A stretch of DNA of 64,000 bases from Candidatus Makaraimicrobium thalassicum. GTDB taxonomy: Bacteria; Omnitrophota; Gorgyraeia; Tantalellales; Tantalellaceae. The DNA is taken from positions 4,414 to 68,413 of the forward strand of contig QNCM01000002.1 of the NCBI GenBank assembly GCA_003644505.1, in the 5' to 3' direction. Below are positions 1 through 27,027 of this stretch, piece after piece. Below the pieces are notes generated by a model that was given only the letters and a program-made list of their open reading frames with translations, made no database searches and was not told the DNA's origin. How positions within the stretch are numbered: position 1 is the first letter of the stretch; each line of letters begins with the position of its first letter. The position numbers were made by a program, and so were the translations under genes.

Positions 1-3000
1 AGCATCTCTATGCTCTGGCAGGGAGTGGTATGGGCGGAACCTGATGCTTTTTCTAAACATACTCTCCAGCCCCAGACGTTATTTACCCGGCCCGGCCTGC
101 AGGACACCTTTCTCATGCTCGCGAGCGGCTATCTCGGGGTTTATCTCAACGGCATAGAAAACGATCCCCGCAACCAGAATGTCGCGAGGATAAGATCTCT
201 GGTCAATTCCGCATTAGCGCAAATACGGGATTCGGAAGATATCCCCCCTGAATTCAAGAAAACGATCCCGCATAACGTAAAATTGCGTCAGCAAAAATCC
301 GCGGTCATAATGGATATGGGTCAGTATAAGATCCGGTATTTTAACCACCGGATCCCCGGGAGCGAGATCCCTTCGACGGAAGAGTCCGGCATTTCTTATG
401 AGGTGCTCCAAACCTATGTCGGTCGGTATCTTTCCAGACAGATCCTTATTCAGAAAGCGTTGTCATCGCCGCCCCACTCTGATGTTTCAGGAAAAGCTGT
501 TGTTGGAACCACGCCTGAACCGGAGGAGATACCGGAGGAGATAGTTGAAACGGTTCAAGAACCGGAAGGGGACTTATCAAAAAGCCCTGAAGATTCGGAA
601 GCATTAAGAGAGATATCAGATAAAAAATGGAAGCGTGCGTTGCGCTGGAACGGTATTTATCTGGCATGTTATTGCTTTATCCAATTAGGAATTATTTTAT
701 CGGGCTGGGCTGGCGCTGAGATAGTTTCTCAGCCAGTCCTTGGATCCAGCGAGGGATATATCAGTGGAGCCTTGGCGCTTACTTCCCTTGGTCTATGGAT
801 GTGGGCGCGTTCTTATCACCCCTGGAGGGAAACTGCCGGGGTGACTCCTCAAATTCTGGTTGTGAGCGGGCCCTACAGGTATTTAAGGCATCCTGTTTAT
901 TCGGCGATGCTCATGATTTCGGCGAGTTGCAGTGTGTTTGTGTATGGTCAGCTCGGCATTATAGTGTCAGCTCCGCTGTTTGTTCTTAACGGCGTTGTTT
1001 TTGTATTATTCAACTCTCTCGCGCGTTCCGAAGAAGAAGAACTGACTGTCCGGTTCGGGGAAGAATATCGCCGGATCCTCCGGCGCACTTATAGCTGGCT
1101 GCCAAGGCTGTTTCCTCAGGCGCATCCGGGATCTGGCCCGTCGGCAGGGACGGGGTATTCCGAAAAAGACTTTATTTCTGATGATGAGAAGAAAGAGAGA
1201 GGGGCAGGGGAACAGCGGACAGGCCGGATCGAAAAATTTGATCTTGTATCCGGCCTGAAAGAACTTTCCGGATCGGTCGCAAATCTGTTACAGGAGAAAG
1301 AGCTCGTTGTTATTGCCATGACCGGTAATCGCGGGGCAGGGAAGACGACCGTTTCAAAGTTACTGGGACAGGGTTTTGCCGGCGCGCGCAAGGAAGAGAT
1401 ACTTGTTATAGAGCAGGATGCTATACACAACTTGCGGAAGATCGCGGAAGAGAGGCAGGAGGTATTTAATGACGGGGTCAAACGGGATGGGGCGGGAAAG
1501 AAGATAATAATCGTCGAAGGATTCTACGCTTCCGAGAATTTCGGTCCGAAAAGCGTCCTCAAAACTCCGGATGTGCTCGTAATTTTAGAGGCTGATGAAA
1601 AAATACGCCAGAGGCGGGTCGCCGAAAGAATAGGCAGCAAAGCGTGGCTGGCTCAGCTCGCTACAGTGATAATGGACGGCGATAAAGAACCCGTTTACCC
1701 CGAGGCTGAGTATCAATTGAACATAACAAACAATATACCACTGCAGATCATAAAGGATGATATTGAGAATGTCCTGAGGCCCGGGTGGGCAAAAAAGGAC
1801 GTTTCCGTTTCAGAGCCTGAGGACAGGTGGTACTCTATTTTTCCCAAGATATATAAAAAATTATCAGGATTGATACGAAGGAACCTGATGCCCCTGTATG
1901 CAGAGGCGGATTATGCCATAGAGTATCTGGAAAAATATGGCTGGTCTGTTCCCGCGTTCTCAAATCCGGCGTCTGTTTCTTCTGCTGAACATGGTCTTGT
2001 TTTATTATCCCTGGCCCTGTGCGCGGGCGCCATAAAGACGGTCGGCAGAAGGCCGCAGCTGGAGAAGGCGAGAAGGCTGTTAAATGAACAAAAATATGAC
2101 GAGGTCAAACAGATATGCGGCCGGCTCAGGGAACCCCTGAAAAGAAAGAAAAATAAAGAGGATTACGTGGAATGCCTTAATCTTCTGGGGTTCGCTTATA
2201 ACGGGAATAAAGAGTTTTCCAAAGCAGGCGAGATTTTTAAAGAAGCGATCGCAGAGGGGGTAAAGGCCCGCGTCGGACAGGCGACAATAAGTATTTTCTT
2301 CAGGCAAAACATATACAGTAAGGCGATGAGTCTCTTCTACGAGAAAGGGGACGTTCAGGGGGCTGTTTCAGTCCTGGAGCAGGGCAAAAAGGATATGCCT
2401 TACGATACTACATTGTCTTCCCTGCTGGGTGAGATGTATTACGAGGCGGGGGATATGGCTTCCGCGGAAGAGATACTCCTCAAAGTACTGGATGAGTTGC
2501 CCGAAGATGAGAAGGATCAGAGAGGGGTCGCTTATTACAGACTGGGGATGGTCTCCTTAGAAAACGGGGACGTTCGGCAGGCAGAGGAAAGGTTTTATCT
2601 GGCGCTTGAGAGGCGGCCTGATTCCGCTGACGTCTATCACATGCTGGGCTGGTGCGAGTCCATGCGGGGTGAGTATGAGGCGGCGAGAACGGAGTTCCAA
2701 AGAGCAAGGGAATTAGGTGTTTCAGCCGGGAGAACAGCACAGGGGTTTATGGTAGCCTGCATACAGGAGGAGAAATTCGGGGAGGCGATCGATGAATTAA
2801 GGCGGGCGCTGGAGGCCGACGCGGAAGATCCGAACATATACCGGTTACTACTTAATAATTTACCCGGGAAGGAAAGGTTAAAACAGGCTTTTGGCGTGAT
2901 TTTTTCCCTTTCAGACAATGAACTGTTCAAAACAGCGATGAAAGGCCTGAAGGCGTATTATCAGAACCCGAAAACGGGGGAAGACATAACGGCCGTGTTA

Positions 3001-6000
3001 GCGGAGGTCCTGCGGGAGCTGCGGGGCTCTGCGGATGATGTTGTGGCTTCAAGGGCCTCTTCAGCCTGCGCGGAATTAGACGCGGGTTTATCCGACAGGC
3101 TTGCCATCCTGGCTATTGAGGCGGCGAATAAAGGGGATCTGGCCGCGGCTGAGAGGTACTTTGATAAAGCCGAAGGATCGGATCCGCGGAATGTCAATGT
3201 TCTTCATCCCCTCGGCGATTTTTTGATCAGCATAGAAAGATACGAAGAAGGTATCAAAAGGCTGGAACAGGCGAAGGGCCTTATAGAAGATGTCAATACG
3301 CCTTACGGCCTGGATCTGGTCCGTGACCTTAGAGACGCGTATGTCAGATACGAAAAGAACCTTCTGAAAAATGGGAAGATCATCCAGGCAGGCTCCTTGT
3401 TCAGGAAAGCCCTGATCACAGCTATAGAGATCGACAAAAGGAAGGACAAAGAAGGGGAAGATTCCAAAGAGTTGTATGAATTCCTGATAGATTTCGTGGC
3501 TACTCTGGAGGGGTCCCCTGAAGGAATAGAACAGGGGGTCGCTGTCTTGAAAGAATTACTGCCTATAGCGGCGGAAAAGAGTTTAAGCGCGGATCTGATC
3601 AATTTCGGACTGGGTAAACTCTATTATGAAAAAAGCAAAATGGAGGAAGTTTTCGGAAATCCGGAAACTCTCGTGCATCTGGACCAAGCGGTACAGGCTA
3701 CTGGTAAAAAGGATGAATACGCGGCACTGGCAGCCTTTCATATCCGACGCCAGCGGGGATATATCTACTTAAGCAGTTATGATTATCGCAGGGCTAAACA
3801 GGATTTCGACATATGCCTCCAGCAGCAGAAGGTTTCAGAGGAGATGATGGCGCCTGTCAGGATAGTCGCCAGTGTGATCGATGAAGCATCGGGGAATCAT
3901 TCAGGCGTTATTAAAAGACTGAACGACGTTGATGAAGACCTGATTCCGGCTTCTCACCAGGTTATTCTGAACAAACTCTTAGGTGATGCTTATTACGGGA
4001 TAGGTGATCTGGACCGGGCACTGAAGTTTTACCAGGAAGCGTTATCAAAAGAGAGGACCCTTTTCAACCCGGTTATCCGGGTACGTCTGGGCAGGGTGTA
4101 TCGGGATATAGGAGAACCGGAAAAAGCCGTGGAATCGTGCGAACTCGCGCTTAAAGAAGCCATGGAGGACATGGACATGGTCCCGGCTAAAGGCCGCGAA
4201 GACATAGAAAGCTGGATACAGAACCTGGGATCGAACAGGGACAGGATCCCTGTATTTAACATACAGCCGCTGAGTGAAGTTCTTATCTCCATGGGGGCCC
4301 TGGATGTTTTTTCGGAAAAAGAGATATCCGGCAAAAGCCTCTTTGATATGGGCGTTGAATTAGGCAGGCAAGAGGTGGAAGCGAGAAAAGCTTTCAGCAA
4401 TAAAGTGCCGGATGCGGATATAGATCTCTTTGCCGGCATTAGAAAGGAAGTGCTGCTGGCGCTGGCCGGTGAAGCGCTTCAGAGTGAAAATCACGCTTTC
4501 TGGGGAGAGATCATCGAGGCGCTCGGGAAAACCGGAGGCGAAGACATAGTGGATTATCTGCTGGATAAACTGGAGCTGCCTTTCCTGAAAGGGGAGAAAG
4601 GGTTGGAGCCCTTGCAGAACTTCCTTCGCGCCCTTCTCTGGACAAGGGAGAGCCGCGCCTGGGAGCAGGTTGACCGTGTAATGGCGGGGCAGGATAAAAG
4701 ATCAAGAAAAAAGATCGCCAAGGCTATCACCAGACTGAAGAAAGAGCTCGGCAGGGACGAGGAGAGATCAAGGAAAGCGGAGGAAGCGGAGAAGGCACGG
4801 AAAGCAAGAGAAGCGGAAGAAGCCGAGAGACTGAGGAAGGAAAGAGAAGAGAAAAAAGCGGAGAAGGCACGGGAGGCGAAGGAAAAGAAAGCCAGGCAGA
4901 AGGCTTATCGCGCGGTTCCGCCGGCTGTTATGGAGATACTGGGGCCAGAACAGGTAGACGCGATCATCGATGAAGCGATACAACAGGGTGAATCGGAAGA
5001 GACAGATGTAACTCTCACGATAATGGCAGTCGACGCGTTGTCAGACAGGTATATCAAATATCACCGTTTAATAGGGGAACAGCGGGATGAATTGGCAGAG
5101 AGATTGAGACGGGAACGTATATCATTGCCGGAGTTTCTAAGGACGTTGGATGACGAGGCGCCCGCTACCGGATGGAAACAGACAGTTGAGGTTTCAGCCG
5201 GGGAGTTATATCTGGTTGAGTTCGGTACCTGGAAAAAATATGAGGGTCTTGGGTCTGAGGGTTTTGAGCCGGAAGTAATTTTAGAGGTAAGGAGCCCGGA
5301 GATAGACAGGGAATCTTTGAGCGCATATCAGGAACGTCTTAAAGAAGCCCTTGTTGAGAGCGGGATCTACCGGAGATGGAGCGAAGCTGAGCTCGAAACG
5401 CTGGGCGGCAATCTTTACCCCGGGACAGAGGAAGATCAGGGAGCTTACGACGACAGGTGGGATGGGATCATGGACTTTTTTGCGGGGCTGTTCACGGAGA
5501 TATCTACCGAAATTGAAGTCAAAGAAAAGGATACGCCGACTGCGCCGGAAAAAACCACCATGAAAGCGCCCGGTTCTTTATCAATGGATGAGGATCGGCG
5601 CATCGATAAACAATATATTACGGGGCTCGTCTCAAAGGCCACGGAGAGGACATGGGAAGTCAATATTCCGGCGGCGGCGGATTATATTAACCGGCACGCC
5701 CCGCCGCTCAAGACCGCGCATGTTGAACCCGGCGGCATACGGATATTTACCGTTGACAGCCTCGGGGATAAGCTGGGCATCCCGCGGTTCAAGGGCGCGG
5801 AAAAAGCGCCTGATCTTGTTTACGCGTACGGAGTATTTGATGAAGAGGAAGATGACCTGAAGATATACGCAACCGAAGCCTATTTTGATGCGCATTTAAA
5901 AGATGATATTTTAGCTCTGGCCGAGATCATAGACCATGAATATACGGAAAATGTTCTGGGCTATTCCCACCGCGCGGCAGCGTCACGTTCCCGCAAATTC

Positions 6001-9000
6001 GTTCCAGAAGGCGGTTTCTTGAGTCCTTTCCATTATTTTTATATCAACCGGATAATAGAAGAAGGCGATTATTTATTGGCGGGATCGCTGGTTCCGGAGA
6101 GGGATGCCTCCGATGATATCGTAGAGGCCAATAAAGGGGATAAAGATGCGGCCGGGAAAATACAGTCATACGAAAAGCTGTTTTTCAGTTACCTGCGTCT
6201 CCTGGAATGGCTTAGTAAAGCGGATAAAGAAAAAAATCATGACGTACTGGCCGAATACGCGCTAAGGGCTTATAAAATACTGGAAAGATATCCGGAGATA
6301 ATATTGACCGAAGGACAAAAAGAGATATATCAAAGGATATCTCCCGAAAGGTTTTACATCCATGAATATGAAAGCGCGAAAAAGGTATCCATGCCGTTAT
6401 CTGAATTCCCGTTCGACGAATTTGAACATTACGGTGAAAACACGGTATTTTTGGGGAGCAAATTCGGTTCAAGAGGCGGGCTGTATTGTAAAGGCAAAAA
6501 GAAGCCTCTTATACGCATAACTGAGCATCCCGGCAGAAAGATAGCTTTTAACCTCAAGAACGGGGATATTTACCGCATATGGATCCTGGATGACGGGGAT
6601 AACGTGATAGATTTCCGGCAGATGGGGCAGATATACGAGACTGACGGCAGGTTCCGGAAAAGGTTTTACTATAAAATCACGCGATCACAGTTCAACGAAC
6701 TGGGAGATTGTATCATAAAGGAACACCGGCTGGATGCGGCCGGCACCTTGCATATAGGCGGCAGGGTCGTGAGATTCGGCGCGTATTACGCTAATTGCAA
6801 AGTTGAAATAAAAGTCAGGTCAGGGCAGATAGACAGCGTATGGATATTCGATGAACACGGCCTGCCGGTTAAGAAAGCTGATTTTGTTCTTATATTTGAT
6901 TGTAACGGAATTTCAAAAGCTGGCACAAATCAGATCCCTCGATTCGCTTCGCTCACTCGGGATGACAGAAAGTTGTCATCCCGAGCGAGGGAGCCGGAGG
7001 CGACCGAGTCGAGAGATCTAAGTTCTAAAAGAGGTTGGTTAAAAGGTTCTTTTTACCGTAATCTTACCCGGAATGAGCTTGAGAAACTTGATAATGTGAC
7101 TTTAAAACGGCTCAGGTTGAATTCAAGAGGCGCACGCTATCTCGGCGGCAGCAAAGACCCTGTACCGTATTTTCCCCGGCATCCAAACGCGGAAGTAGAG
7201 ATAGATATGATACAGGGACATATAGATAAAGTCAGGATACTCGGCTCTGATGGAGAGGTTGTAGAAGAACATATCTTCAAGCTGGTGTATGACGAGGAAG
7301 GCAGGATAACATGTTCGTTCCATAAGGATATGGCCGAAGATGATTTTGAAAAGATAACAGGAAGGATCACAAGGTTAAAGACCGGTGGCGGCGGCCATCT
7401 TAGAGCCGGCACTGCGGCCCTGGGCACGTTTACCGGGCACAAAAATTGCCCGGCTGAAGCGGAAATCGAACGCGGTATTCCAAAGGTGATCAGGTTTTAT
7501 GAGGACATGGAAACCCGGAAACCGGCCGGCAAACCCGTGCGGTACAGCCTTATTTACGATGCCGGAGGCAGGCTCATAGATTCGTTCAGAAAACAATATT
7601 CAAAGGCGGCGGGAGAAAGATTAAAGAAAGCCACGGTAAAGGAATTTTATCTCAATAAGGGCGCGTCTCTGAAATTCGGCGAACGGTACTGGGCGACTTT
7701 TGACAGAAAGGAATACGGCGGGCGTAAGATCGAGTTTGACGTTACTGACGGTATAGTGACAGAGGTCCGGATATTTGACAGGCAGGGGGAGAACATAGAG
7801 AAGACGTGTCCTTTTTCGCTTGTATACGAGATCGGCGGAAAAGGAAAGGAAAAACTCGTTGATAGTTTCTGGACAGCTTACGGCCCGGAGAAATTCGAAA
7901 AACTGACAAACCATGTGATTAGAACTTTGAAACTCAGCAAATATGGGGCGCTTGATATCGGAGGCAGGGTAGGAAGGAATAAGAACATGCCCCGCGCGAA
8001 GTTTCCCGGTAACCCCGGCGCTGAAGTCGTTGTATATGTGAAAGAGGGCGAAGTTATAAGAGTGACCGATATTGCCGGAGATGAGTTGGAAGGAACGTAT
8101 TTTGGCAGGGATAAAACAGGCGCAAGTGGAGAGAGTAATCTTGACCGGCGTTACGGGCAAGGCCCCCTGGCAGCCGGGACTGTTGACCGGTCTGCTTACC
8201 GTATGCCTAAAAAACCGTTTGAGATACTCAAGGAAAAAATAAAAGAGGCTGTCTCTAAAGGAGAGATCCCCGATGGAGACCATGAACGGTTCTTAAGCCA
8301 CGGACTGGCATGGACGGACAAAGGGGCAAGGGTGCATTTTATAAGAAATTCTAAGATTTATACACTTGCCATGGAAGCCATGAACACGGGTTCAGGTGCG
8401 GGTGATCAAATAAAAGATTACCATGACCTGATGGGATACATCAATCTTTATTTAAGGACGAAATATATTATTAAAAGGTTTAGAAGGGAATATAAATATG
8501 ACATCGTAAAACAGGTAATATTACGGCTTAAGGATTATCCCCGGTATATCCGTCTTCTTGAGTTTTACCGGGATCAATACGGAAAATTCGCGGGTGAGGA
8601 CAGAAAAGGAGACGAAGAGGCTCTGCTTGAGGACATGATCAGCCGTTTTGTCGCAAGCAGGGCCCTGGGCGGAGGAGCGGTTGAACTTTTGGACGAAAAG
8701 GGCATGAACAGAAGCCTGGATGATTTTTGGCCGCTTGCTTCGTGTGTTATTAAGGATGGGCTGTGGATGTTTGAGAATGAGCTTGATAAGATCAAAGATA
8801 TAATTTTTAAGGAGAACGCACAACTTAAAGATGAATATAAAACGGCAAAAGAAAAGCAGGAACGGCTTAAAAAGCGGATATTCCAGCTCTTGAACGAAGC
8901 CTCTCCTACAGTGAAACAACTGATAGAGATCATACGTATTTTAGACCCGCAAGCCGAAGCCCGTTCAAGGGCACAAGAGGACGCATCCGCGTTTGAAGGA

Positions 9001-12000
9001 TACTTAAAAGAAGATATGGTAATTATAGCCGGATATTTAAGATCATCCGGCTACGACGTTCTTGACCAGGCTGTCCTGAAAAAGGCGTTTGTTTCTCTTA
9101 AAGGTAAGCTTATGGTGATAGACTCTTTTGATATGTTCGTAAGGGCCGTCGGAGGTCTTGACCGCAGAAATATGATCGATGCCGTTTTTGAGGGGAGCAT
9201 AAATTTTGAAAGCGCCCTTGTTTCCCATATGCGTGGTTTGAACGGAACAAGAAATATGGGAAGCAGGCTGAGGAGTTTGACTGCAGCCAGCGGCCTGTCT
9301 TCAGATCAGGCAGCGGAAGAGATCGGTTGTTCGCCTTCTACGATGCGTGCATGGAGAACTGATGAAAGTGACCCTTTACCCGGATATCCGCCTAAAATAG
9401 CGGACGTGTTCAGCAGGCGATTGGGCGAGCCGGTATCGACTTCACTGCTGGTATACGGCCAACCCCTGAACGATGTGTTGCAAAAGACGGCTACTTTTGG
9501 CGAACGGCTGTTCATACTGGCACGGCTTTCCGGCCTGGATGCGGATGAAACAGGCAAAATGATCGGACGTGACGGTCAGACTATAGGATCGTGGACGCGC
9601 GAGTTTAATACACCGCAGCAAGAACTGGATTATCTTAAATTAGCCGGGATATTCAGTAAACGTTTAAAAGAGAAGATCGAGGTTACGACCCTGATGTCCG
9701 GAATAAGCCTGGATGAATTTCTGTGCAGCGAGAAAGTAAAGGCTCCGAATGGCGGCGGGGAGATCCAGGTTACTCCGGGGCTCAGGATCAGGGTTTTAAG
9801 GTTGTCATGCGGCCTTACGACGACGGAGCTTGCCGAGAAGGCCGGTGTCCCGCACGGGACGAGAAGCCTGGTGAATAAATGGGAAAGAGAAGGAGTATTA
9901 CCCCGGGTAGATCGTTTATTAAAACTGAGCAGGATCTTTGGAAAAGTAAAAAAAGATATAGAGGTTACGCATATACTTTATGGGAAGTCTCTTGTCAAGT
10001 TTTTATCAAAGTCGGACAGTTTCGGGGAAAGGGTGGAATCCATAAGACTGGCTTTAGGATTGGAACTAAAGCAGATGGCGGAAGCGATGGGGATTCACCT
10101 TGCTACTTTACGTGTGTGGAGAAAAAGGGTGGATCCTCCCGCAAACGACAAGCCGATAACATTATTAGATGTGTATCACAGGGAAACCGGTAAATATCTG
10201 GATGGATGCCTGCTTTTTTACGGAAAGACCTTGAATACGCTTTTGGACGAACTTGACAGGTCAAAAGCTCCTGAGATCATCAAATATTTCAGGATCTCCG
10301 CGGGATTGAGCAGAAAAGAAGTAAGTGATAAATTAGGCGTTGATGAGAACACCGTATGGCAGTGGGAATCGGGGGTAACACTGCCTCATAGAAGCAACAT
10401 GGTTGCTTTAACCGGAATGTTCAAAGAACTTTTTGCCTCCAGGGATAATGGTATAAGCGTAAGGATAGTAGCTGAGCATCTTGTGCCGTTATTGTTAATT
10501 CCGCCTGGACATACTGATAGGGGCCCGGCGCTTTTTGTCGATCCGGCAACCGGGGACGTAAGAGCGTTGAAAGGGGAGCCCGATGCCCCCGGCATGATAT
10601 CAGAGCATAAAGCGATCAACCTGGTATGTGACGAACTGGTGTTCAAACGGCAGAGGCCGCCGCTGGCCGCGGGAGATCCCCTGTATGATTTTGTCAGTGA
10701 AGTCGCTCCTGAAACGGACATATATGTTATAGATGACGCCGCGCTCAAACAGGGATTAGAGAAACTTGCCAGAAAAAATAATCAGCCCGGCCTTGCCGGG
10801 CTCGCGGGAGGCCTTATAACCCATGCCGGCACCTGGCGTGACCCTGAGACGGGCCGGATCAGGGCCTTAAATATGTTTATCCCGGCATCCGTTTATGAGC
10901 TTCTGCTGGGATTCCTGCAAAGAAGGCACCTGATGGAACAGGTCGTCCCGTTACTTGGGTTCTGGAGAGCTCACGAAATAGGGCATCTTATAGACCGCGA
11001 ATACGATCTTGACGATGAGCTGCCCGAAGGTGCAGAAGACATGGCAAGGCTCATACTTCTATTGAGTAAAGCACAATGGGCTATGGAAAAGGGCAGGCTG
11101 AAGCAGGCACAGAAATATGCGGATACAGCCCTGGAGCTTCACCCCGGGTTCGATTTCACGCTTGATCTACGGTTGCGTATAGAGGAGAGCGGCTACGGGA
11201 TGTCAGGCGTTAGAGTGAGCATGATGGCCGTTCTAGACGCAAATATGCGGGATAAAGCGATGATAATAAGGCGCCATCCACCGGAAGATAATGTCCTGGA
11301 TACACTCGCGGGTAAGGCAGGAAAGGATTCAAAACGTCTTTCCCAGGTTATACAGGTCATATTGCAGCAAGCATTCGAAACGATCAAGAGGGGTGGTCCG
11401 GCTCTGGCGGAGTTTTTAGATGATCTGAAGATAAGAGGAGCCGGGATAGAGCAGGGTTTGTCGGATCCGGAAGAAGAGATCGCATTAGAGAGGGGTATAG
11501 CAGAGGGGGGAATGCAGGATATCGGGGATTATGTTGTCCTGCCTGTTGTGTGCAGGTATATAACACGCGCGCTGGAACAGAGTCCGAAACTGACATGGCA
11601 GATGAGCGTTGTCGAGAAATTGATGGATCTGGCAGGGAAAGGAAGAATAGGAAGTAAAACAGAAGTCTATCATGAGGAATCCGGGTACCGCACCAGTCTC
11701 CTATCCTATATATATTATCTCGGAGCGCGGGCGTACATGGCCGCGAACCTTAACAAGGCAGTGATGTACTTCGAAAAATCGACGCAGCAGGACAGGCCTA
11801 TGCCCGTATCATTTACAGGGCTTGCTCTTTCCCTCGTTGAGAGCGACAGGACAGAGGGGTCTTTTGAACGGGCGTATCAGGTGTTGGGCCAGGCCAGGGA
11901 CAATTTCGGAGATCTGGCTGTTATCGCTGAGGCAGAGGGTATCCTGCACGCGGAGCAGGAAAAGACGGCCCTGGCGTTGAGAGAAGCGCGTGAACTCTTT

Positions 12001-15000
12001 AAGAGCGGTAATTATGTCGCCTGCAGACAGAGGATAGAAGAAGAGACAAAGAGGCTGCATAGCACATCTCTTTTCCCTTCTTTCAAGAAATTCGAGGGAA
12101 AAGGAGGATTAGGCAGACTGGTGAGCGGCCGCACGGGCAGTGCCGCGGTCAGCCCGCTTCTGACAGAGTTAAACGCAAGGAATGAAACTCTCCTCAGGCT
12201 GAAATACAGAGCAAGACAGAATTTAAGTATGGGAGATTATGACCAGGCGGAAAGGCGTTTCAGGGAGGTACTGGACCAGAACCCTTCAGACAGTGAGATT
12301 GAACAGCTGTTGCTGGATATCTCGCGCAAGAGAGAAGAGGCACAGGAAAAAAGGACAGCGGAGGAACTGGGGCTTTTTGCTGAGTGCCTGAAAAAGGCCG
12401 AAGGACAACTGTCCTCCGGGGACCGGGAGGTATCTGACGGCCGGCTGGAAAGCGCCGAAGAGTATTATAAAAAGGCCCTGCTTGAGCTTGAACGCGCCCC
12501 GCAGGTTGAGATGTCCGCTGTGCGGGTTGATGAAAAGATGAGGGAAGCGATCCGGAGAATAGACAGTATCGGGAAGGAAATAGCCGAAAAGATAAGAGAT
12601 ATACAAGCCGAAAGGCAAAGCCGGGCAGGGGAAACCGGAGTGATCTTTTCCGGTGATGTTGCCGGCGCATTCGACAAAGCGCTTTACCCCCCGGAGGGAA
12701 AGATTACAGTGCCGCCCATACCGGGGAGCGCTCAAAGGATCATACTGGAGGCTGTCAGGAAGGTATCAGAAGGTGACGAAAGGGATGTCAGGGACATACC
12801 CAGCCGCGGGGATGTATGGGTATGCCTCGCCGGCATCTACAGGATAGTTTTTACCCTTACCGACAGCGGGGATATATTTGTTGTCTGGGTCGGCAGCAAG
12901 GACACGGCAAAATACAAAAAAGTGCTCGCGCCTCTTCCCGAAGGCTTTGACCCCGAAAAAATGCTGGACCGGGCCGTGAGAATAGAGGACATTGGATCAG
13001 GCGCGCCAGCCCGGCCTGTTCGCGCTCAAGCAAAGAACAAACCCGGCGGCCCGGCGCTTTTTGTCGATCCGGTGACCCGGCAGATGAGGGCATTGAAGGA
13101 TGAACCCGATGCCGCCGGTATGATATCAGAGCACGAAGCGGTTAACATGGTATGTGACGAACTGGTGTTCAAACAGAAGAGACAGCCGCTGTCCGCGGGA
13201 GATCCCTTGTATGATTTTTTCAGTGAGCTCGTTCCTGATACGGACATATACGTGATTGATGATGCCGCGCTCAAACAGGCATTAGAGAGACTTGCGAAAA
13301 AGAACAGTCAACCCGGCCTCGCCAGTCTCGCAGAAGGCCTTATAACCCATGTCGGCACCTGGCGCGACCCTGCCACGGGCCGACAGAGGGCCCAGAACAT
13401 GTTTATACCGGATTCTGTCTACGGATTTTTGGTGAAGCTTCTGAAAAAAAGGGACTGGTTCCCGGATGCCGGTATACTGCTTGAATTCTGGAGGCTTCAC
13501 GAGAGAATACATTTTTTGTTACGGGAAATTGATATTGACGGGATGATAGCTTCCGGGGAATCGCAGGAAATGGCGGAACTTGTTCTTCTGCTGAGCAGGG
13601 CGGAACGCGCGCTGGAGAAAGGCATGCTGGAAGAGGCTTCGGAATACGCGAAAAAGGCCATTGAGGTCAACACGAACCTTGCGGTTACGCTTGAATTAAA
13701 TGGGCGCATAAGTGAGGTCAGGAAAGACTGGGACGAGGCATTTCAGGATTATTTGATAGCCCTGGCAGCGGCAAATTTACAGAGCAAAGAGATAACCATA
13801 GGGCATCCGCTGGAGAGCAGGGTGCTGAATATGCTTAAAAAAATTACCACAGCCAGCCCCAAGAAAGTCTTCAGGGGCGTCATGGATCAAGTAGAGTTCC
13901 TGAAAAGTCTGGGGCAGACTTCTCCGGTATCAGATGAAGACAGGGAAAGACATATAATCACTTATTTCGGCATTCTGCCTGTCACGTGCAGATACGCGAC
14001 CCCGCCATTACAGATAAAGCCGGCTCAATGGGATCTGACGATGACACGGTTCCAGGTAGCCGTTGCTGACAGGTTATTGGAACTGCTCAAAGAAGGAAAG
14101 ATCGTTGATCCGATGGACGGCGGGGAATCCGGCAGGCTTTTATCTTACATTTATTATCTTGCCGGCGAAGCGAGCCGGTCGGCAGGGGATATTGATCAGG
14201 CTGTCGCGTATTTCAGGGAATCGGTCCGTTATGATGAGCCCTTTTCAAGGTCGCCGGCGGCACTGGCTGTTTCTCTGGCGCACAGGGACGGGACCCCGGG
14301 ATCTGTTGAAGAGGCATATCAGGTCCTTTCCTCGGCCGAGGAACAATTCGGCCCCCTGGATGTGTTCAGTTCGGCGAGAGAATACGTCCGGGAAACGGAA
14401 GAATGGATCCTGGTTCATGAAGAGGCCCTTGAACTGTTCAGGCGGTGCGATTATGAGGCTTGCCAACGCTGTATAACAGAGGCGAGGAGAAAGAAAGGCG
14501 AAACAGCCCTCCCTGCTCCTTTGAGCGTTTCTTTGGAAAACCTGCGGAAAAGCGCCCGTTTAGCGGACAGGTTAAAGAACAGGGGGATAGAAAGTTTCAA
14601 GAATCAGGATTATATGGCGGCTGAGAAGTGTTTTGAAGCGGTATTAGAGGAGAACCCTGCTGATGAGGAAGTGATGGGATTACGCGCCCGGATCCGGGAA
14701 ATCAAAGAGGAAAGACAAAAGAAAACAACGGCTGCGGATACCGCGGATAAACGTGATCAGGCAACGGAAAAATGCTACCTTGCGGTGCAAAAATTCCGTC
14801 TTATTGCCGAAAGGCAGGAAAATGCCGGACGGTTAAGCAGGGCCAGTAAGAATTACAGAAAGGCACTGGCCGAGCTTGAAGAAGTGCCGCCTTTTTATAC
14901 CGCAATCGGACAGATTCGGAGGCAAATAGAAAAGAAACTGGCCGCCATAAAGGGCCTGCCCGATAAAACGGTAAGGAAAGGCGAAAAATCCGGACCGCAA

Positions 15001-20406: not shown

Positions 20407-23400
20407 ATGAGGATTCATCATGTGTATTCCAGACGCACGAAGAAAATGAACCGTATTATCACAGTGGTGATAATTACCTGTTTTGCCGCATGTGATATTG
20501 CGCGGGCGTACCCGGCCGGCATGCGGGCCGGTAGCGGCAGTCTCGTGCAGCAAACCTTATTCACCTCTCCGGATAAAGCCGGATCTCTTGCCAGGGCGGC
20601 AGCCAAATATCTTGAAGCGAGTATGGCGAAAGCCTTTGCCGGAATACCGCTCGCGGATGTCCAGGCCACGCTTGAATATATCAGGGAGACCGCGTTTTCC
20701 AGCTTGCGGATCGACGGCAGAAGATTTAATGTAACAGGCGGCGCCGAAGAAGGACAGGTCTTTGTAACAATATCAGAAAGCTGTGTTTTACGGTATTTCA
20801 ATCCTAAAATGCCCGCGCTCCCTCTTCCCGCAGATAACCTTACAGTATCCTGGGAATATCCCATCAATGAGTATCTTGGGTTCCAGCTGTTAAAAACCAA
20901 ACCGGCCGGTTCAACCCAGCCTGTTGAAAGTTCTGCCCTGGAAGCCGGGCAGGAGGATATGTTCCGCCGTCTTGGCATGAACAGCGAGGTTTTTCTGCAT
21001 GAGATAGTCAATATACAGTATGTTTTCAGCACAGTTTTGGAAATAGGGGAATTACGGTTGGAAAGAGACGGGGAAGGAACTACCCCTAAGTTCGCCGGGC
21101 TACTTGAATTGAATCAGCAGATGAAAGTGACCATTAACGGCTTAAAGGAACTAAGCAGATTGTTTGTATCTGGCAGATTGACGAAGGAATATCTGAACCA
21201 GACCCAGGGCTGTAGAGAATGGAGAGGGAAGGATCTTACGGAATATTTCTTTGAAGAAGTGGAAAAATTACACGATATGCTTGAATGTGTGAAAAACTAT
21301 CATCTGAACAGATATGTGCCGGTCTTTTCCCAGGAGCATAAGGCGTCAATAAAAATAGCGTCTCAGCTGATGCCGTTCGCATGTTCAAAAATAGCCGCCT
21401 TTTTTCGCTCAAAAGGCGGGTTAGACGCAATAGGACGTCAGCAGGAAATGGACGTGAATTCGGTTATCGAAATGGCGGCCGTCAGTTTTTTCCGCAAAGA
21501 TAAAAATATCATCTTATCTTTAAACGATGTTCCTCCGGTAATGGGGGATAAATTGTTGTTTATGGAAGTGTTGTACAACCTTATTAAAAATGGATTTGAA
21601 GCGGCAGATAAAGAAGGATTTGTCCGTGTGGGCACTTTTCTGGACAGCCAGTCAAATGAAGTTGTTGTTACCGTTGAAGACAACGGGAGAGGGATCGCGC
21701 CGCAGGATAAGGACCGTATTTATGAGATGTTTTTTACCACTAAGGGTGAATTGGGTACGGGGGTAGGGGTTGCCTTTTCAAAAGAAATAGTCGAAAACGC
21801 GGGCGGAACGATCACTTTTGATTCGGAATACGGAAAAGGCACGACGTTCACGATACGATTGCCGGCTTCCGCAGGGATTGATACAACCGGAAATCCCGGG
21901 GGCATTTTGGGTTATTTTAAGGCTTTGGACAAACAGGGAGATAATGCCGTGATCGCGGGCGTCAACCTCGCTGATCTTGAGAACGAATCGGATCTGACCG
22001 CTTATTTGAATGATTACTGTGTGGTTCAGGAAAAGGAGGTATTGAAGGATCTGTTGCAGAACAGGCTCAAAGGCGGAGAAAGGGCATTGTTCGATTCGGT
22101 TTTTAATCCCAGAGCAAGACTTGCGGAAAGGGTCAAAGGAGAGGGAAGACCGCCGCTTAAGGTAGTCCATGTCCGCGGCGGCAGAGGCGCCGCTAAGGTG
22201 ACTGAGGAACTGTCGGCACTGGCGCGGGAAGGTTTCGTGGATCTGACCATTATCCCCGGTGCAGTGGATGACGGAAGAAGCTGGGCCGATATGGCCTATT
22301 ACCTCAATACCACGGGGGTCCCTGACATGGGTAAGGGATATTCCGATATGGGCTCTGATACCGATGCGGTGGGTTTCGCGGTATCCAGGCTGGTGGAAGG
22401 GGATACCCCCTGTTCCAAACAAGAAGCATTCGAGTTGCTTGGAGAAGCGATCAGGGGTTTTAAAAACAAGTATCACAAAGCCGCGAACGCGGATGTTCGA
22501 AGATTGGTCAGGCAGTTTGAGGTTCTGGATAGAGAGAAAAGGGAGAGAGTACTGCCCTGTATCATCGAATTTTACGAAAGAATAAAGCTGGAACAGAGGA
22601 AGAACAACCTTTATATGGATATCAGAAGAATCCCCATGAGAAGCGTTATTATCGTCGGCGCCAGGGAGATATTCGGATCATGGCAGGGAGCGATAGATTT
22701 CTTCGGTGAGTTTGTGGATTCCGCGGGAAGGGTGTTGCTTCCTACCGAAGACAGATTATACGCGATGGCCTTACTGGAGGACGGCACGTTCCTGCCCACG
22801 GAGAACGCGCTGAACGAAGCCGGCAAGGACAGCGGCTATCTATATTTTACCGTGGGGCCCGGATCTTTTGCAAGTAAGGAGGTGTTTGAGGAGATATTTT
22901 ATGCGTCCATGGGAAGGCCGCCTCAGGAGCGCGAGAAAAGGATAATCGAGCTCCTCCGTATGTCTGAATATGACAGGTTAAAAGGTGAATCCATAAATTT
23001 ACTGAGAAATATGTCAAAGCCGGAGATAAAAAATTTCATAGGCTTCATAGAAAAAACTTTTTCCTACCTGTCCTCCGGCATAATGATCCAGCCTTCCGCG
23101 GCAGAGGCCGTAAGCGAGGCTGACATGATCATCTATGGGCCTACGGATATAGAGTCCAATATCGCTTCTGCCGTCATCTATGACGATATAAGAGAGGCCA
23201 TTGAGAGGAACAGGTCCGCTGTAAAGATACTTATAGGCAATTCCAGGGATGAGCATCATATCGAACCGCCCGGGACAACGATAAGCTCGCAGATGGAAAG
23301 GTTATACCGCTATTTGTCGGATCAGCAGCGGTACAGGGTAGATGAATGTGATTGGGGGAGGCTTACTGATTTTGTAACGCATGTCATAGGCAGAAAATAT

Positions 23401-24393
23401 GACGATCCGGAGCTCAGGGATTATATCCCTTTTGACGCGGACTTATTGAGGAAAACAGGAGTTGCCCCCGTAGGTCTGGATCTTGAGATGCTGAACCTGG
23501 GGCAGGACCGCACAGGGGCATACGGAGCAGAATACCGTCAGACGCGGGACGGCCGATACAATAGTTCTCTTATGGTTGACGTTATGCTTTCGCTTTCCAT
23601 GATGAATGAGCTCGGATATCCGTTAGAGCTTTCCGAGGAGAAAAAAACTGTGGATCCGTTGTCTAACCGTTCCGCGGGAAGAACGGTCATGGCAGGAGTG
23701 GAAAAGACAGTCCCACGCCTGGTAAACGCGCTTGTCACAGCCAGCCGCAGGGTCTCACCCGCCCGTGCTAGAGCCATGGTCCAGGCCGGAGACGCGGAAA
23801 CTGCCTCAGAAAAAGAGGAAAGAAGGATCGGTATTTTTATCGATGAAAGGCTCGGCAGCGGAAAGACGGAGGAGATAATGGAAGTTCTGGAAAAGCTGAC
23901 CCACAGGGAGGGGCTCTTAGGCCGGTTGTTAAGGAACGCTGCGATTAAGTACGGTGATATAAATGATATCAGGGAAGGCCCCGCATATCTGGAAACAAGA
24001 AAGAACGTGCGCAAAGAAGACATGGTAATTATAACGCGTAATGAGGAGCTTGAATGTTTAAGGCCTTATGAAGGAAGCTCTGTCATAACCAAGGTGGATG
24101 ATGCTGACCTGGGATCAGATTCTTATTATCCTATCCTGGAGATAATTCTTTTTTCGCTCGCCCGCGCAAGTATCCTTGAATATAGGAAAGACGACCTCAT
24201 CGGATTTTATGGATCAATCCCCAATGTTGAGAGACTCGACGCGGACGCAATAGTTGATCTATGCTGGGATGAAAACATGAACAGATGTAAAAGCACGATC
24301 ATCCTCAAACTGGGGATCCCGGATGCCGGACAGATAACCGGCGAGTCGGAATTATACAAAAGCATCGCAGAATACCTCGCCCGCAACGCCTAA
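20407..24393 (+). CDS. Large secreted or membrane-anchored protein combining a GHKL/histidine-kinase-like ATPase domain with a CofD/YvcK-like (UPF0052) domain. The true start may be the internal Met at 20446.
   Basis: A 1,328-aa ORF begins 19 nt after the giant CDS stop. A signal-peptide-like N-terminus MNRIITVVIITCFAAC (possible lipobox AAC) starts at 20446. The HATPase_c motifs (N, G1, G2 boxes) and the CofD/YvcK-like block are detailed in the sub-features. Confidence 0.75.
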   Translation: MRIHHVYSRRTKKMNRIITVVIITCFAACDIARAYPAGMRAGSGSLVQQTLFTSPDKAGSLARAAAKYLEASMAKAFAGIPLADVQATLEYIRETAFSSLRIDGRRFNVTGGAEEGQVFVTISESCVLRYFNPKMPALPLPADNLTVSWEYPINEYLGFQLLKTKPAGSTQPVESSALEAGQEDMFRRLGMNSEVFLHEIVNIQYVFSTVLEIGELRLERDGEGTTPKFAGLLELNQQMKVTINGLKELSRLFVSGRLTKEYLNQTQGCREWRGKDLTEYFFEEVEKLHDMLECVKNYHLNRYVPVFSQEHKASIKIASQLMPFACSKIAAFFRSKGGLDAIGRQQEMDVNSVIEMAAVSFFRKDKNIILSLNDVPPVMGDKLLFMEVLYNLIKNGFEAADKEGFVRVGTFLDSQSNEVVVTVEDNGRGIAPQDKDRIYEMFFTTKGELGTGVGVAFSKEIVENAGGTITFDSEYGKGTTFTIRLPASAGIDTTGNPGGILGYFKALDKQGDNAVIAGVNLADLENESDLTAYLNDYCVVQEKEVLKDLLQNRLKGGERALFDSVFNPRARLAERVKGEGRPPLKVVHVRGGRGAAKVTEELSALAREGFVDLTIIPGAVDDGRSWADMAYYLNTTGVPDMGKGYSDMGSDTDAVGFAVSRLVEGDTPCSKQEAFELLGEAIRGFKNKYHKAANADVRRLVRQFEVLDREKRERVLPCIIEFYERIKLEQRKNNLYMDIRRIPMRSVIIVGAREIFGSWQGAIDFFGEFVDSAGRVLLPTEDRLYAMALLEDGTFLPTENALNEAGKDSGYLYFTVGPGSFASKEVFEEIFYASMGRPPQEREKRIIELLRMSEYDRLKGESINLLRNMSKPEIKNFIGFIEKTFSYLSSGIMIQPSAAEAVSEADMIIYGPTDIESNIASAVIYDDIREAIERNRSAVKILIGNSRDEHHIEPPGTTISSQMERLYRYLSDQQRYRVDECDWGRLTDFVTHVIGRKYDDPELRDYIPFDADLLRKTGVAPVGLDLEMLNLGQDRTGAYGAEYRQTRDGRYNSSLMVDVMLSLSMMNELGYPLELSEEKKTVDPLSNRSAGRTVMAGVEKTVPRLVNALVTASRRVSPARARAMVQAGDAETASEKEERRIGIFIDERLGSGKTEEIMEVLEKLTHREGLLGRLLRNAAIKYGDINDIREGPAYLETRKNVRKEDMVIITRNEELECLRPYEGSSVITKVDDADLGSDSYYPILEIILFSLARASILEYRKDDLIGFYGSIPNVERLDADAIVDLCWDENMNRCKSTIILKLGIPDAGQITGESELYKSIAEYLARNA
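21490..21880 (+). other. HATPase_c (GHKL ATPase) domain of the downstream protein
   Basis: N box is LYNLIKNGFEA. G1 is VEDNGRGI and G2 is GTGVGVAFSKEIVENAGGTITFDSEYGKGTTFTIRLP. No canonical HisKA H-box (HE[LI]RTPL) is visible upstream. Confidence 0.7.
22150..23330 (+). other. CofD/YvcK (UPF0052, 2-phospho-L-lactate transferase / gluconeogenesis-factor)-like domain, divergent
   Basis: The N-terminal motif KVVHVRGGRGAAK...DLTIIPGAVDDGRS parallels YvcK's KIVVIGGGTGLS...ITAIVTVADDGGSSG. The distal motif ADMIIYGPTDIESNIASAVIYDDIREAIERNRSAVKILIGNSRDEHHIEPPGTT parallels ADLIVLGPGSLYTSIIPNLLV...AI..S.A.KVYVCNLMTQPGET. Confidence 0.4.
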
Positions 24394-25971: not shown

Positions 25972-27027
25972 ATGGTAAAAAAAGACAGGAGCAAATCCAG
26001 CGAAAAAAAGACTGCCGCTGAAGGAACAGCGGCGAAGGATACAGCCAGAAAGAAGGCACTGGAACTGGCGCTCAGCAGGATCCAGAAGGATTTCGGTGAA
26101 GGCGCGATAATGAAGATGGGGGAAGGATATAAAGTGAAGGTAGAGGCCATATCGACCGGTTCGATCGGTCTGGATCTGGCGCTGGGGGTAAACGGCGTGC
26201 CGCGCGGAAGGGTCGTCGAAATATTCGGTCCTGAATCAAGCGGGAAAACCACGCTTACTTTAAATATCCTTGCCAACGCGCAGAAAGCCGGGGGTGAGGC
26301 GGCTTTTATAGACGCTGAGCACGCGTTTGATCCGGCTTACGCCAGAAAGATCGGGATTAATCTGGACAGCCTGTTGATATCCCAACCGGATAACGGGGAA
26401 CAGGCTCTGGAGATTACTGAGGCCCTGGTCCGGAGCAACGCTATTGATGTTATAGCCATAGACTCGGTAGCTGCCCTGACACCGAGGAAGGAGATCGAGG
26501 GCGAGATGGGGGATTCCCATGTAGGATTACAGGCCCGCCTTATGAGCCAGGCTCTCAGGAAGCTGACAGGCGCCATAAGCAAGTCAAAAACCTGTGTTAT
26601 TTTCATCAACCAGATCAGGATGAAGATAGGCGTGATGTTCGGTAATCCTGAGACCACCACAGGCGGTAGAGCCCTGAAATTCTATTCATCGGTACGGATC
26701 GACCTGAGGCGCATCGCGTCCCTGAAAAAGAGCGACAAGGTCATAGGCAGCCGCGTCAGAGCGAAAGTCGTCAAAAATAAGATGGCTCCGCCGTTCAGGC
26801 AGTCGGAATTTGACATCATGTTTGATGAAGGGATATCCCGGTCCTCAAGCATCATTGATATGGCGGAAGAAGCCGGGGTGATCAAAAAGAGCGGAACCTG
26901 GCTTTCCTTCGGCGATGAGAAGATCGGGCAGGGAAAAGAGAACGCGCGGATGTACCTCAAGGAAAACGCCCGGATGCTGAACAGGATCGAAGGTGAAGTC
27001 AGGAAGGCCTTGCGCACAGCGCACTGA
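25972..27027 (+). CDS. recA: Recombinase RecA
   Basis: [12 protein letters not shown] is the Walker A motif. Also present are [36 protein letters not shown] and the C-terminal [11 protein letters not shown]. Confidence 0.95.

Follow-up and report, generated by a model that had tools for sequence, protein, structure and literature searches.

How does a single bacterial gene come to hold two pairs of multi-kilobase modules in an apparently nested order, and what keeps the starts of paired modules alike while most of each copy has diverged? These questions are raised by a stretch of 64,000 nucleotides (nt) of Candidatus Makaraimicrobium thalassicum (Omnitrophota; contig QNCM01000002.1, positions 4,414 to 68,413), here called the window. 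Near its start, one plus-strand open reading frame (ORF) encloses a repeat region, at 5503-18789, in which two copies of a module A flank two copies of a module B. We propose that this region descends from a tandem array of A-B pairs from which the window lineage lost a middle A, and that gene conversion between the copies has homogenised the first part, or head, of each module. Taken as a whole, we regard this explanation as likely.

Repeated modules within a giant reading frame

The ORF encodes 6792 amino acids (aa) in the window and its translation is free of stops; an exact match to the neighbouring RecA locates the window on the ENA metagenome contig ERZ27227322:k141_1246129 (114,909 bp), on which the gene is called at 6814 aa, so that the window start cuts off about 22 codons. 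According to a Pfam scan of the whole protein, the N-terminal part holds an ICMT/PEMT-like membrane region, a P-loop kinase and many TPRs, and an S-adenosylmethionine (SAM) methyltransferase lies C-terminal to A2. The repeat region runs in the order A1 (5.0 kb), B1 (2.5 kb), B2 (2.4 kb) and A2 (3.4 kb). DNA and protein self-comparison both confirmed this order, with the sizes and coordinates, as given in a preliminary description of the stretch. The features are:

10..20388, + strand: giant ORF, in the order ICMT-like, P-loop kinase, TPR, A1, B1, B2, A2, SAM methyltransferase, conserved C-terminal domain
5503..6402, + strand: A1 head (aa 1832-2131), an uncharacterised domain with a near-invariant motif
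5554..6168, + strand: putative gene-conversion tract in the A1 head; aa 1849-2001 are a shared mosaic, mostly A2-type, with synonymous divergence (dS) 0.18, and aa 2033-2053 are A1-type in both copies
5695-6100 (A1) and 15607-16010 (A2), + strand: A-head cores with the motif of the uncharacterised domain family
6403..8115, + strand: A1-only stretch (aa 2132-2702), ~5 diverged ~105-aa repeats
8116..10521, + strand: A1 tail (aa 2703-3504), ~5 XRE-type helix-turn-helix (HTH) units; 75% nt and ~60% aa identity to the A2 tail, synonymous divergence mosaic
10522..13047, + strand: B1 (aa 3505-4346), with HExxH head (HEIGH), TPR-rich middle and RelE/ParE-like C-terminal part
10522..10885, + strand: B1 head island, 83% identical to 13048-13411; proportion of synonymous differences (pS) between paralogues 0.26-0.36
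12712..12999, + strand: RelE/ParE-like segment at the B1 end (aa 4235-4330), a sub-threshold assignment
12994..13047, + strand: B1/B2 junction linker (aa 4329-4346), IGSGAPARPVRAQAKNKPG
13048..15414, + strand: B2 (aa 4347-5135), with HExxH head (HERIH), TPR and RelE/ParE-like end at nt 15145-15429
13048..13411, + strand: B2 head island, from DNA self-comparison
15415..16317, + strand: A2 head (aa 5136-5436), its core at ~nt 15466-15924 homogenised with A1
16318..18789, + strand: A2 tail (aa 5437-6260), ~5 XRE-type HTH units; abuts the head, with no 105-aa repeat stretch

A blastn self-comparison aligned the A heads (5540-6385 vs 15448-16300) at 83.4% over 853 nt, the A tails (8124-10494 vs 16323-18687) at 74.9% over 2385 nt and the B heads (10522-10885 vs 13048-13411) at 83.2% over 364 nt; the remainder of B has ~50% nt identity between copies. 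The A head contains a core of ~460 nt at ~91% identity, and the best 300-nt stretch found by a repeat search (5547-5846 vs 15459-15758) reaches 92%. The preliminary description had put the similar 5' islands at 0.6-0.8 kb and 85-90%; the A island stands at 83% overall and at ~91% only in its 0.46-kb core, and the B island measures only ~0.36 kb.

In the protein self-comparison, aa 1832-2131 match aa 5136-5436 at ~77% (A head), aa 2703-3527 match aa 5436-6260 at ~62% (A tail), and aa 3505-4328 match aa 4347-5142 (B) with 77% identity at the head, dropping to 25-35%. B1 and B2 share 40% aa identity overall and their dS is saturated, so that the recent duplication suggested earlier is wrong for B. 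A stretch of 571 aa (aa 2132-2702, nt 6403-8115) is present in A1 only, with no counterpart in A2.

Synonymous divergence and probable gene conversion at the module heads

Synonymous divergence within the window was followed by sliding Nei-Gojobori estimates. Between the A copies, dS is 0.11-0.29 over aa 1850-2000 and then climbs to 1.4-1.8 by aa 2030-2130; the B heads have a dS of 0.30-0.44, with the rest of B above 1.5 or saturated, and the A tails form a mosaic ranging from 0.16 to 1.25. Inside the islands, synonymous divergence is 5-10 times lower than in adjacent sequence (Fisher's test on synonymous differences, island vs neighbour: p=2.7e-9 for A, 1.7e-5 for B). Nonsynonymous divergence (dN) is also lowest in the heads, at 0.05-0.10.

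A scan of 185,579 species representatives with the A head found only two genomes, both metagenome-assembled genomes (MAGs) of Candidatus Omnitrophota with 73-82% aa identity. Copies are labelled W (window), M (MAG020) and C (CSMAG_1412), and A' denotes the middle A unit of the relatives. In the A-head core, dS between paralogues is 0.18 (W_A1-W_A2) and 0.08 (M_A'-M_A2; 0.08-0.16 over the head), against 0.72 (W_A1-M_A1) and 0.44 (W_A1-C_A1) between orthologues. The distal head adjoining the core has the reversed pattern, with orthologues at 0.35-0.47 and paralogues at 0.8-2.5. The head core of M_A1 is an outlier to all other copies (dS 0.51-0.72, C_A1 included at 0.53). At 88 diagnostic sites, scored by A1-type and A2/A'-type references, each window copy retains its own type in the flanks; over aa 1849-2000, both copies carry one common mosaic, mostly A2-type, and at aa 2033-2053 both are A1-type. 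Paralogues closer than orthologues and a tract with bounds at synonymous sites are both marks of concerted evolution.

The B modules repeat this pattern on a smaller scale. B1 and B2 differ by a dS of 1.5-1.9, and W-M orthologues by ~0.30. Over the first ~75-100 B codons, paralogue pS is 0.26-0.36, at or below that of orthologues (0.32-0.41 for B1, 0.17-0.45 for B2); directly downstream, pS lies at 0.6-0.8 for paralogues and at 0.03-0.2 for orthologues. In a run test on concordant polymorphic sites, the p values for A were 0.033 when all positions were used and 0.0026 for third positions; those for B were 0.034 and 0.022, respectively.

These results support intragenic gene conversion as the process that holds the module starts alike, the recombination itself being deduced from the divergence patterns. 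The ongoing conversion proposed in the preliminary description is thereby upheld, by the dS contrast, the order of paralogues and orthologues in the A-head core, the mosaic tract and an orthologue dS that is not low. A further tract in the window, converted from A1 to A2, is suggested at the beginning of the A tail (aa 2703-2783), where pS is 0.30-0.34 for W_A1/W_A2 vs 0.38-0.55 for W_A2/M_A2.

As a separate observation, the W_A2 tail (16318-18789) is about equally far from all other A tails, including its positional orthologue M_A2 on contig L004 (dS 0.51-0.65, dN 0.24-0.29; orthologue baseline elsewhere 0.30). Candidate explanations are several conversion tracts, a birth and death of copies that left the tail non-orthologous, and faster evolution.

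An additional A module in related genomes

In MAG020 the modules are ordered A1 (head, repeats and tail), B1, A' (head and tail), B2, A2, methyltransferase and C-terminus. The CSMAG_1412 contig L005, 5.7 kb long and a single open frame, begins within an A' head, covers the A' tail and B2, and stops within the A2 head; with both of its ends inside A heads, it indicates that the homogenised islands were where the short-read assembly broke. In both relatives, B1 and B2 are separated by a further A unit, making the array a regular A-B-A-B-A; the window is without this middle A. Head-to-tail repetition of a composite unit is seen in the relatives (A-B-A'-B-A); for the A-B-B-A of the window itself, it is the order in the relatives together with the junction linker that argues for a tandem origin.

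All B-to-A junctions have the form AVRIEDLxKKPxxRxExx / TMKAPGSLS. The B1 end in the window reads AVRIEDIGSGAPARP, followed by VRAQAKNKPG and then by the B2 head, GPALFVDP. The first part of this B1/B2 linker is homologous to the B-to-A linker of the other copies, the rest is faintly like an A-head start, and a short CCCGGC/GGCCCGGCG microhomology lies at the join. The linker is likely the scar of a lost A' unit.

In the history that we propose, an ancient tandem multiplication of an A-B pair would have produced A-B-A-B-A, the order retained in the two related genomes, and the window lineage most likely lost its middle A by an in-frame, linker-to-linker deletion that left the apparently nested A1-B1-B2-A2. 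The copies would later have diverged apart from the first 0.35-0.6 kb of each module, where repeated non-reciprocal homologous recombination between copies would keep the head DNA alike; this recombination can probably continue because the heads, under stronger protein constraint, retain enough identity. The repeats first described as a nested duplication are real, but are better read as a tandem (A-B) array minus one A.

Homologue searches with the A1 head and the B1 head in protein collections gave no match, and a scan of metagenome contigs with the A-head alignment found no relatives; an exhaustive HMMER search was needed to reveal the family, and it returned 46 A-head proteins from 1.84 billion representatives. 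The majority are long and built of several modules, many of them with 1-4.6 thousand aa (kaa) and two or three A heads, and a few have only 190-550 aa, some with signal-peptide-like N-termini. In distant members the A heads number 1-3 and the detected B heads 0-1, family architectures span Nterm-A-Cterm (1298 aa) to Nterm-B-A-A-A-MTase-Cterm, and in several proteins their own A heads are each other's best match. Given these varied architectures, module gain and loss is a trait of the A-head family. The expansion, contraction and variation that had been anticipated for the locus are thus found, both in the extra A between B1 and B2 of the two related MAGs and in the head counts of the distant members.

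The relatives also differ from the window elsewhere in the gene. MAG020 (contig L003, nt ~720-2545, aa 241-848 of a partial ORF) has a ~590-aa insert with transmembrane (TM) helices, an HExxH motif (HEVVH) and a GGDEF diguanylate-cyclase domain; the insert extends precisely up to 'TMKAPGS', with which the A1 head starts, and the window has nothing at this position. CSMAG_1412 (contig L002, aa ~600-1000) has a second copy of the ICMT-like membrane domain region matching window aa 182-395.

Alternative explanations

Could the heads be alike without gene conversion, simply as the most constrained domains, similar since one old duplication? Such constraint is visible in their dN, the lowest of the region (0.05-0.10), and in the invariant HExxH and HExxE..H motifs. 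However, protein constraint does not cut synonymous divergence 5-10 fold, and constraint on synonymous sites cannot explain the islands either, since the synonymous divergence of orthologues in the heads is elevated and not reduced (A1 core dS 0.44-0.72; B1 head pS 0.32-0.41 vs 0.03-0.2 downstream). In the A-head core, moreover, paralogues are nearer than orthologues, and we consider constraint alone very improbable. The similarity might instead have come from a co-occurring divergent strain, through allelic recombination or a chimeric contig, and the outlying head core of M_A1 (dS 0.51-0.72; 0.53 to C_A1) does suggest imported sequence in that lineage; but the site-by-site mosaic shared by the window copies requires exchange between A1 and A2, no second strain of the locus was found in any collection searched, and we give this origin very little credence. 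An assembly artefact, with copies collapsed, mis-joined (for example by skipping a middle A) or head reads mixed, is suggested by the source, a k141 short-read metagenome contig, by the break of a related MAG exactly at the A heads and by the extra A unit in both relatives. Yet exact repeats in 1-21000 reach no more than 40 nt, far under k=141 or read length, and the B1/B2 linker is unique, with B1-specific and B2-specific sequence within 141 nt on either side; from the workings of the assembler, a de Bruijn contig should hold only k-mers present in the reads. The frame is intact over 20 kb with an orthologue dN/dS of ~0.3-0.55, indicating purifying selection, and the independently assembled MAG020 shows matching head homogenisation. 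Collapse in the window is therefore unlikely, and there is scant probability that an artefact of any of these kinds accounts for the pattern; the warning that the repeats are a source of assembly trouble holds for the relative CSMAG_1412 and not for the window.

As for the direction of the change, we think that A' was probably lost in the window lineage by in-frame deletion. This is favoured by the retained B-to-A linker, by the ability of simple tandem duplication to give A-B-A-B-A and not A-B-B-A, and by the dS of the A'-A2 tails (0.43), which exceeds the W-M orthologue baseline (0.30). With the polarity reversed, the ancestor would have been A-B-B-A, and the lineage of MAG020 and CSMAG_1412 would have gained A' when A2 was copied into the B1/B2 junction. 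M_A' is indeed closest to M_A2 (head dS 0.08-0.16, tail 0.43), and W_A2-M_A2 (0.51) is no closer than M_A'-M_A2. Against such a gain, the B1 end in the window keeps not only the B-to-A linker (AVRIED..ARP) but also residues like an A-head start, and non-adjacent insertion of a 3.2-kb copy would be rarer than a deletion; we judge the reversed order of events unlikely, though a real contender. Several points do weigh against our preferred history of a tandem array, loss of A' and converted heads. As only three genomes are compared, the limits of the tracts, their direction and the number of events can be given only roughly. A single lineage (M/C) supplies every 'A2-type' reference state, so that some 'converted' W states could be ancestral. 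The p values of the run test are modest, and the M_A'-M_A2 tails (dS 0.43) are nearer than W_A2-M_A2 (0.51), which gain of A' elsewhere or A'-A2 conversion fits equally.

Domain content of the modules

Both DNA islands coincide with two unannotated head domains. As we read them, the A module would consist of an uncharacterised head (HExxE..H), a run of ~105-aa repeats in A1 only and ~5 XRE-type HTH units, and the B module of a head with HExxH, a TPR-rich middle and a RelE/ParE-like end. The HExxH of the B head, a motif that would suit a zincin-type metallopeptidase, is invariant in 5 copies from 3 genomes. In the A head, the motif LGIPRF..IYVT..IDHEYxE..SH..LSPFH contains a near-invariant H-E-x-x-E...H, and G, P, Y, T, E and F residues are near-invariant as well. 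Profile searches against PDB sequences gave no significant match for either head (A-head profiles from 6 and 30 sequences), and Pfam at E<=1 returned only noise for both. A resemblance of the B head to LdcB/DacB (E ~0.6) was disregarded. An AlphaFold2 model of the B head was moderate (pLDDT 66), and a fold search with it found generic helical folds only.

The XRE HTH units score above the Pfam thresholds in the A1 region (HTH_3, PF01381, 74 bits, cut-off 23; HTH_31, PF13560, 65 bits, cut-off 27) and in the A2 region (58 and 38 bits, respectively), and Pfam also finds TPRs in both B units. For the last ~95 residues of B, the best matches were Gp49 (E=1.7e-4) and ParE_toxin (0.03), both under the Pfam cut-offs. 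A profile search aligned the motif G..W..RVG.YR.I..I of this end with PDB 2khe, a 'toxin-like protein' (E=0.024), and IMG labels relatives 'TPR repeat protein/mRNA-degrading endonuclease RelE'. These sub-threshold matches suggest that each B unit ends in a RelE/ParE (HigB/Gp49)-like segment. In the relatives, the RelE/ParE-like segment is directly followed by an A module with 5 XRE-HTH units, an order that recalls higBA.

The A1-only stretch consists of ~5 beta-rich repeats of ~105 aa with 23-33% mutual identity, missing from both A2 and A'. A stretch of such repeats is also found behind the first A head in the distant family members P0001, P0003, P0004, P0008 and P0009, so that the stretch was probably present in A1 ancestrally and not inserted later.

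All A heads start at an invariant Met (TMKAPGSLS, ..ACC ATG AAA GCG CC..), at 5554-5556 and 15466-15468 in the window and at the corresponding sites on contigs L002-L005 of the relatives; this could be a fossil of once-separate genes, or chance. Internal translation starts or a gene-fusion fossil were considered and set aside, since only 3-4 of 7 copies are preceded by a Shine-Dalgarno-like purine-rich motif, which at a background of 21% is not significant.

The protein has TM helices and no signal peptide. Since hydrophobic or TM helices are confined to aa 216-339, all repeated modules lie on one side of the membrane, and their domain content indicates that this is probably the cytoplasm. The best explanation is a protein anchored in the membrane through its N-terminal helices, with the remainder on one side. 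A surface antigenic-variation cassette was ruled out by the position of the TM helices and the cytoplasmic type of the domains, and a modular synthase of polyketide synthase or nonribosomal peptide synthetase (PKS/NRPS) type by the lack of such domains in Pfam. HEAT, dockerin, TSP3 and glycosyltransferase domains were likewise not found in the Pfam scan of the whole giant protein.

Genomic surroundings

At 4770-4891, ahead of A1 in the giant ORF, is a low-complexity stretch rich in Lys, Glu and Arg (AEEAEKARKAREAEEAERLRKEREEKKAEKAREAKEKKA), with a periodicity of 9/27 nt. The gene 3' of the ORF (20407-24393, 1328 aa) follows after an 18-nt gap and encodes HATPase_c (histidine-kinase ATPase) and CofD-like domains. 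Further along, recA (25972-27027) shows that recombination machinery exists, and nothing beyond that. Every substantial gene of the window (1-64000) is on the + strand, including the giant ORF, recA, recX, alaS, his genes, trpEGDCBA and tRNA-Pro.

GC and AT skew are persistently positive over the whole window, with cumulative GC skew climbing monotonically, and this accounts for the many stop-free antisense frames. The coding strand is strongly purine-skewed (GC skew ~+0.2, AT skew ~+0.1 to +0.2); its complement is pyrimidine-rich, and antisense ORFs are therefore expected. The antisense shadow ORFs that had been noted as by-products of the repeats are just that, and 6 of 6 were recovered in place.

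Discussion

Concerted evolution is well known from repeats in large bacterial proteins and from catalytic domains in modular PKS/NRPS megasynthase genes. The present locus shares with these systems multi-kb modules within one ORF, partial homogenisation by intragenic recombination, copy-number change and trouble for short-read assembly. It differs from PKS/NRPS genes in having no such domains, and from surface-protein repeats in the age and divergence of its copies (B at 40% aa identity), in the restriction of homogenisation to the module starts and in the probably cytoplasmic location of the modules. In the possible RelE/ParE-like B end, followed by XRE-HTH-rich A modules, it resembles pairs of HigB/RelE toxin and XRE-HTH antitoxin; here, however, these are fused into one polypeptide, the toxin-like match is under the Pfam threshold, the HTH units come in arrays of ~5, and toxin activity is putative. 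The locus is therefore a well-documented example of a known phenomenon and no new kind of system.

Very long or giant multi-domain proteins are characteristic of Omnitrophota, and domain repetition inside them has been described as 'the rule', their repeats at the nucleotide level having mostly dissolved (West-Roberts et al. 2023, bioRxiv 10.1101/2023.11.21.568195; Nielsen & Lui 2026, bioRxiv 10.64898/2026.06.07.730766). The window protein is like these in its closest relatives, which are Omnitrophota MAGs, its huge ORF, its TM helices without a signal peptide, its methyltransferase, TPR and kinase content, by which it fits the 'signal-transduction/regulatory' class of long Omnitrophota proteins, and its HATPase_c neighbour gene. 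It differs in length, as 6.8 kaa is under the thresholds of those two papers (at least 10 kaa for 'long' and at least 30 kaa for 'giant'), and in lacking the HEAT, dockerin and TSP3 domains of the archaeovorin and dockerin types. It also differs in its multi-kb composite modules with persisting nucleotide islands, gene conversion and module presence or absence between relatives; in a term search, 'gene conversion' did not occur in either paper.

What might these modules do? There is perhaps a small chance that the A and B heads are metal-dependent enzyme domains of two undescribed kinds and that, along with the RelE/ParE-like and XRE-HTH units, they have been multiplied to form a 'poly-toxin-antitoxin-like' regulatory hub, cytoplasmic and anchored to the membrane. 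If so, conversion would be maintained because catalytic heads must remain interchangeable, and module gain and loss would tune the regulatory capacity of host-dependent Omnitrophota.

In practical terms, such loci break short-read MAG assemblies, as in CSMAG_1412, and orthology-based trees built from the heads would mislead. The analysis also flags two unannotated conserved domains, present in a few dozen proteins among the 1.84 billion representatives. The locus offers a clean, quantified case of how a long bacterial gene may be remodelled, in which composite modules of 2.4-5 kb are tandemly duplicated and lost or gained whole at their linkers, and only their starts are converted. This qualifies the recent statement that the repeats of long Omnitrophota proteins are simply old and decayed.

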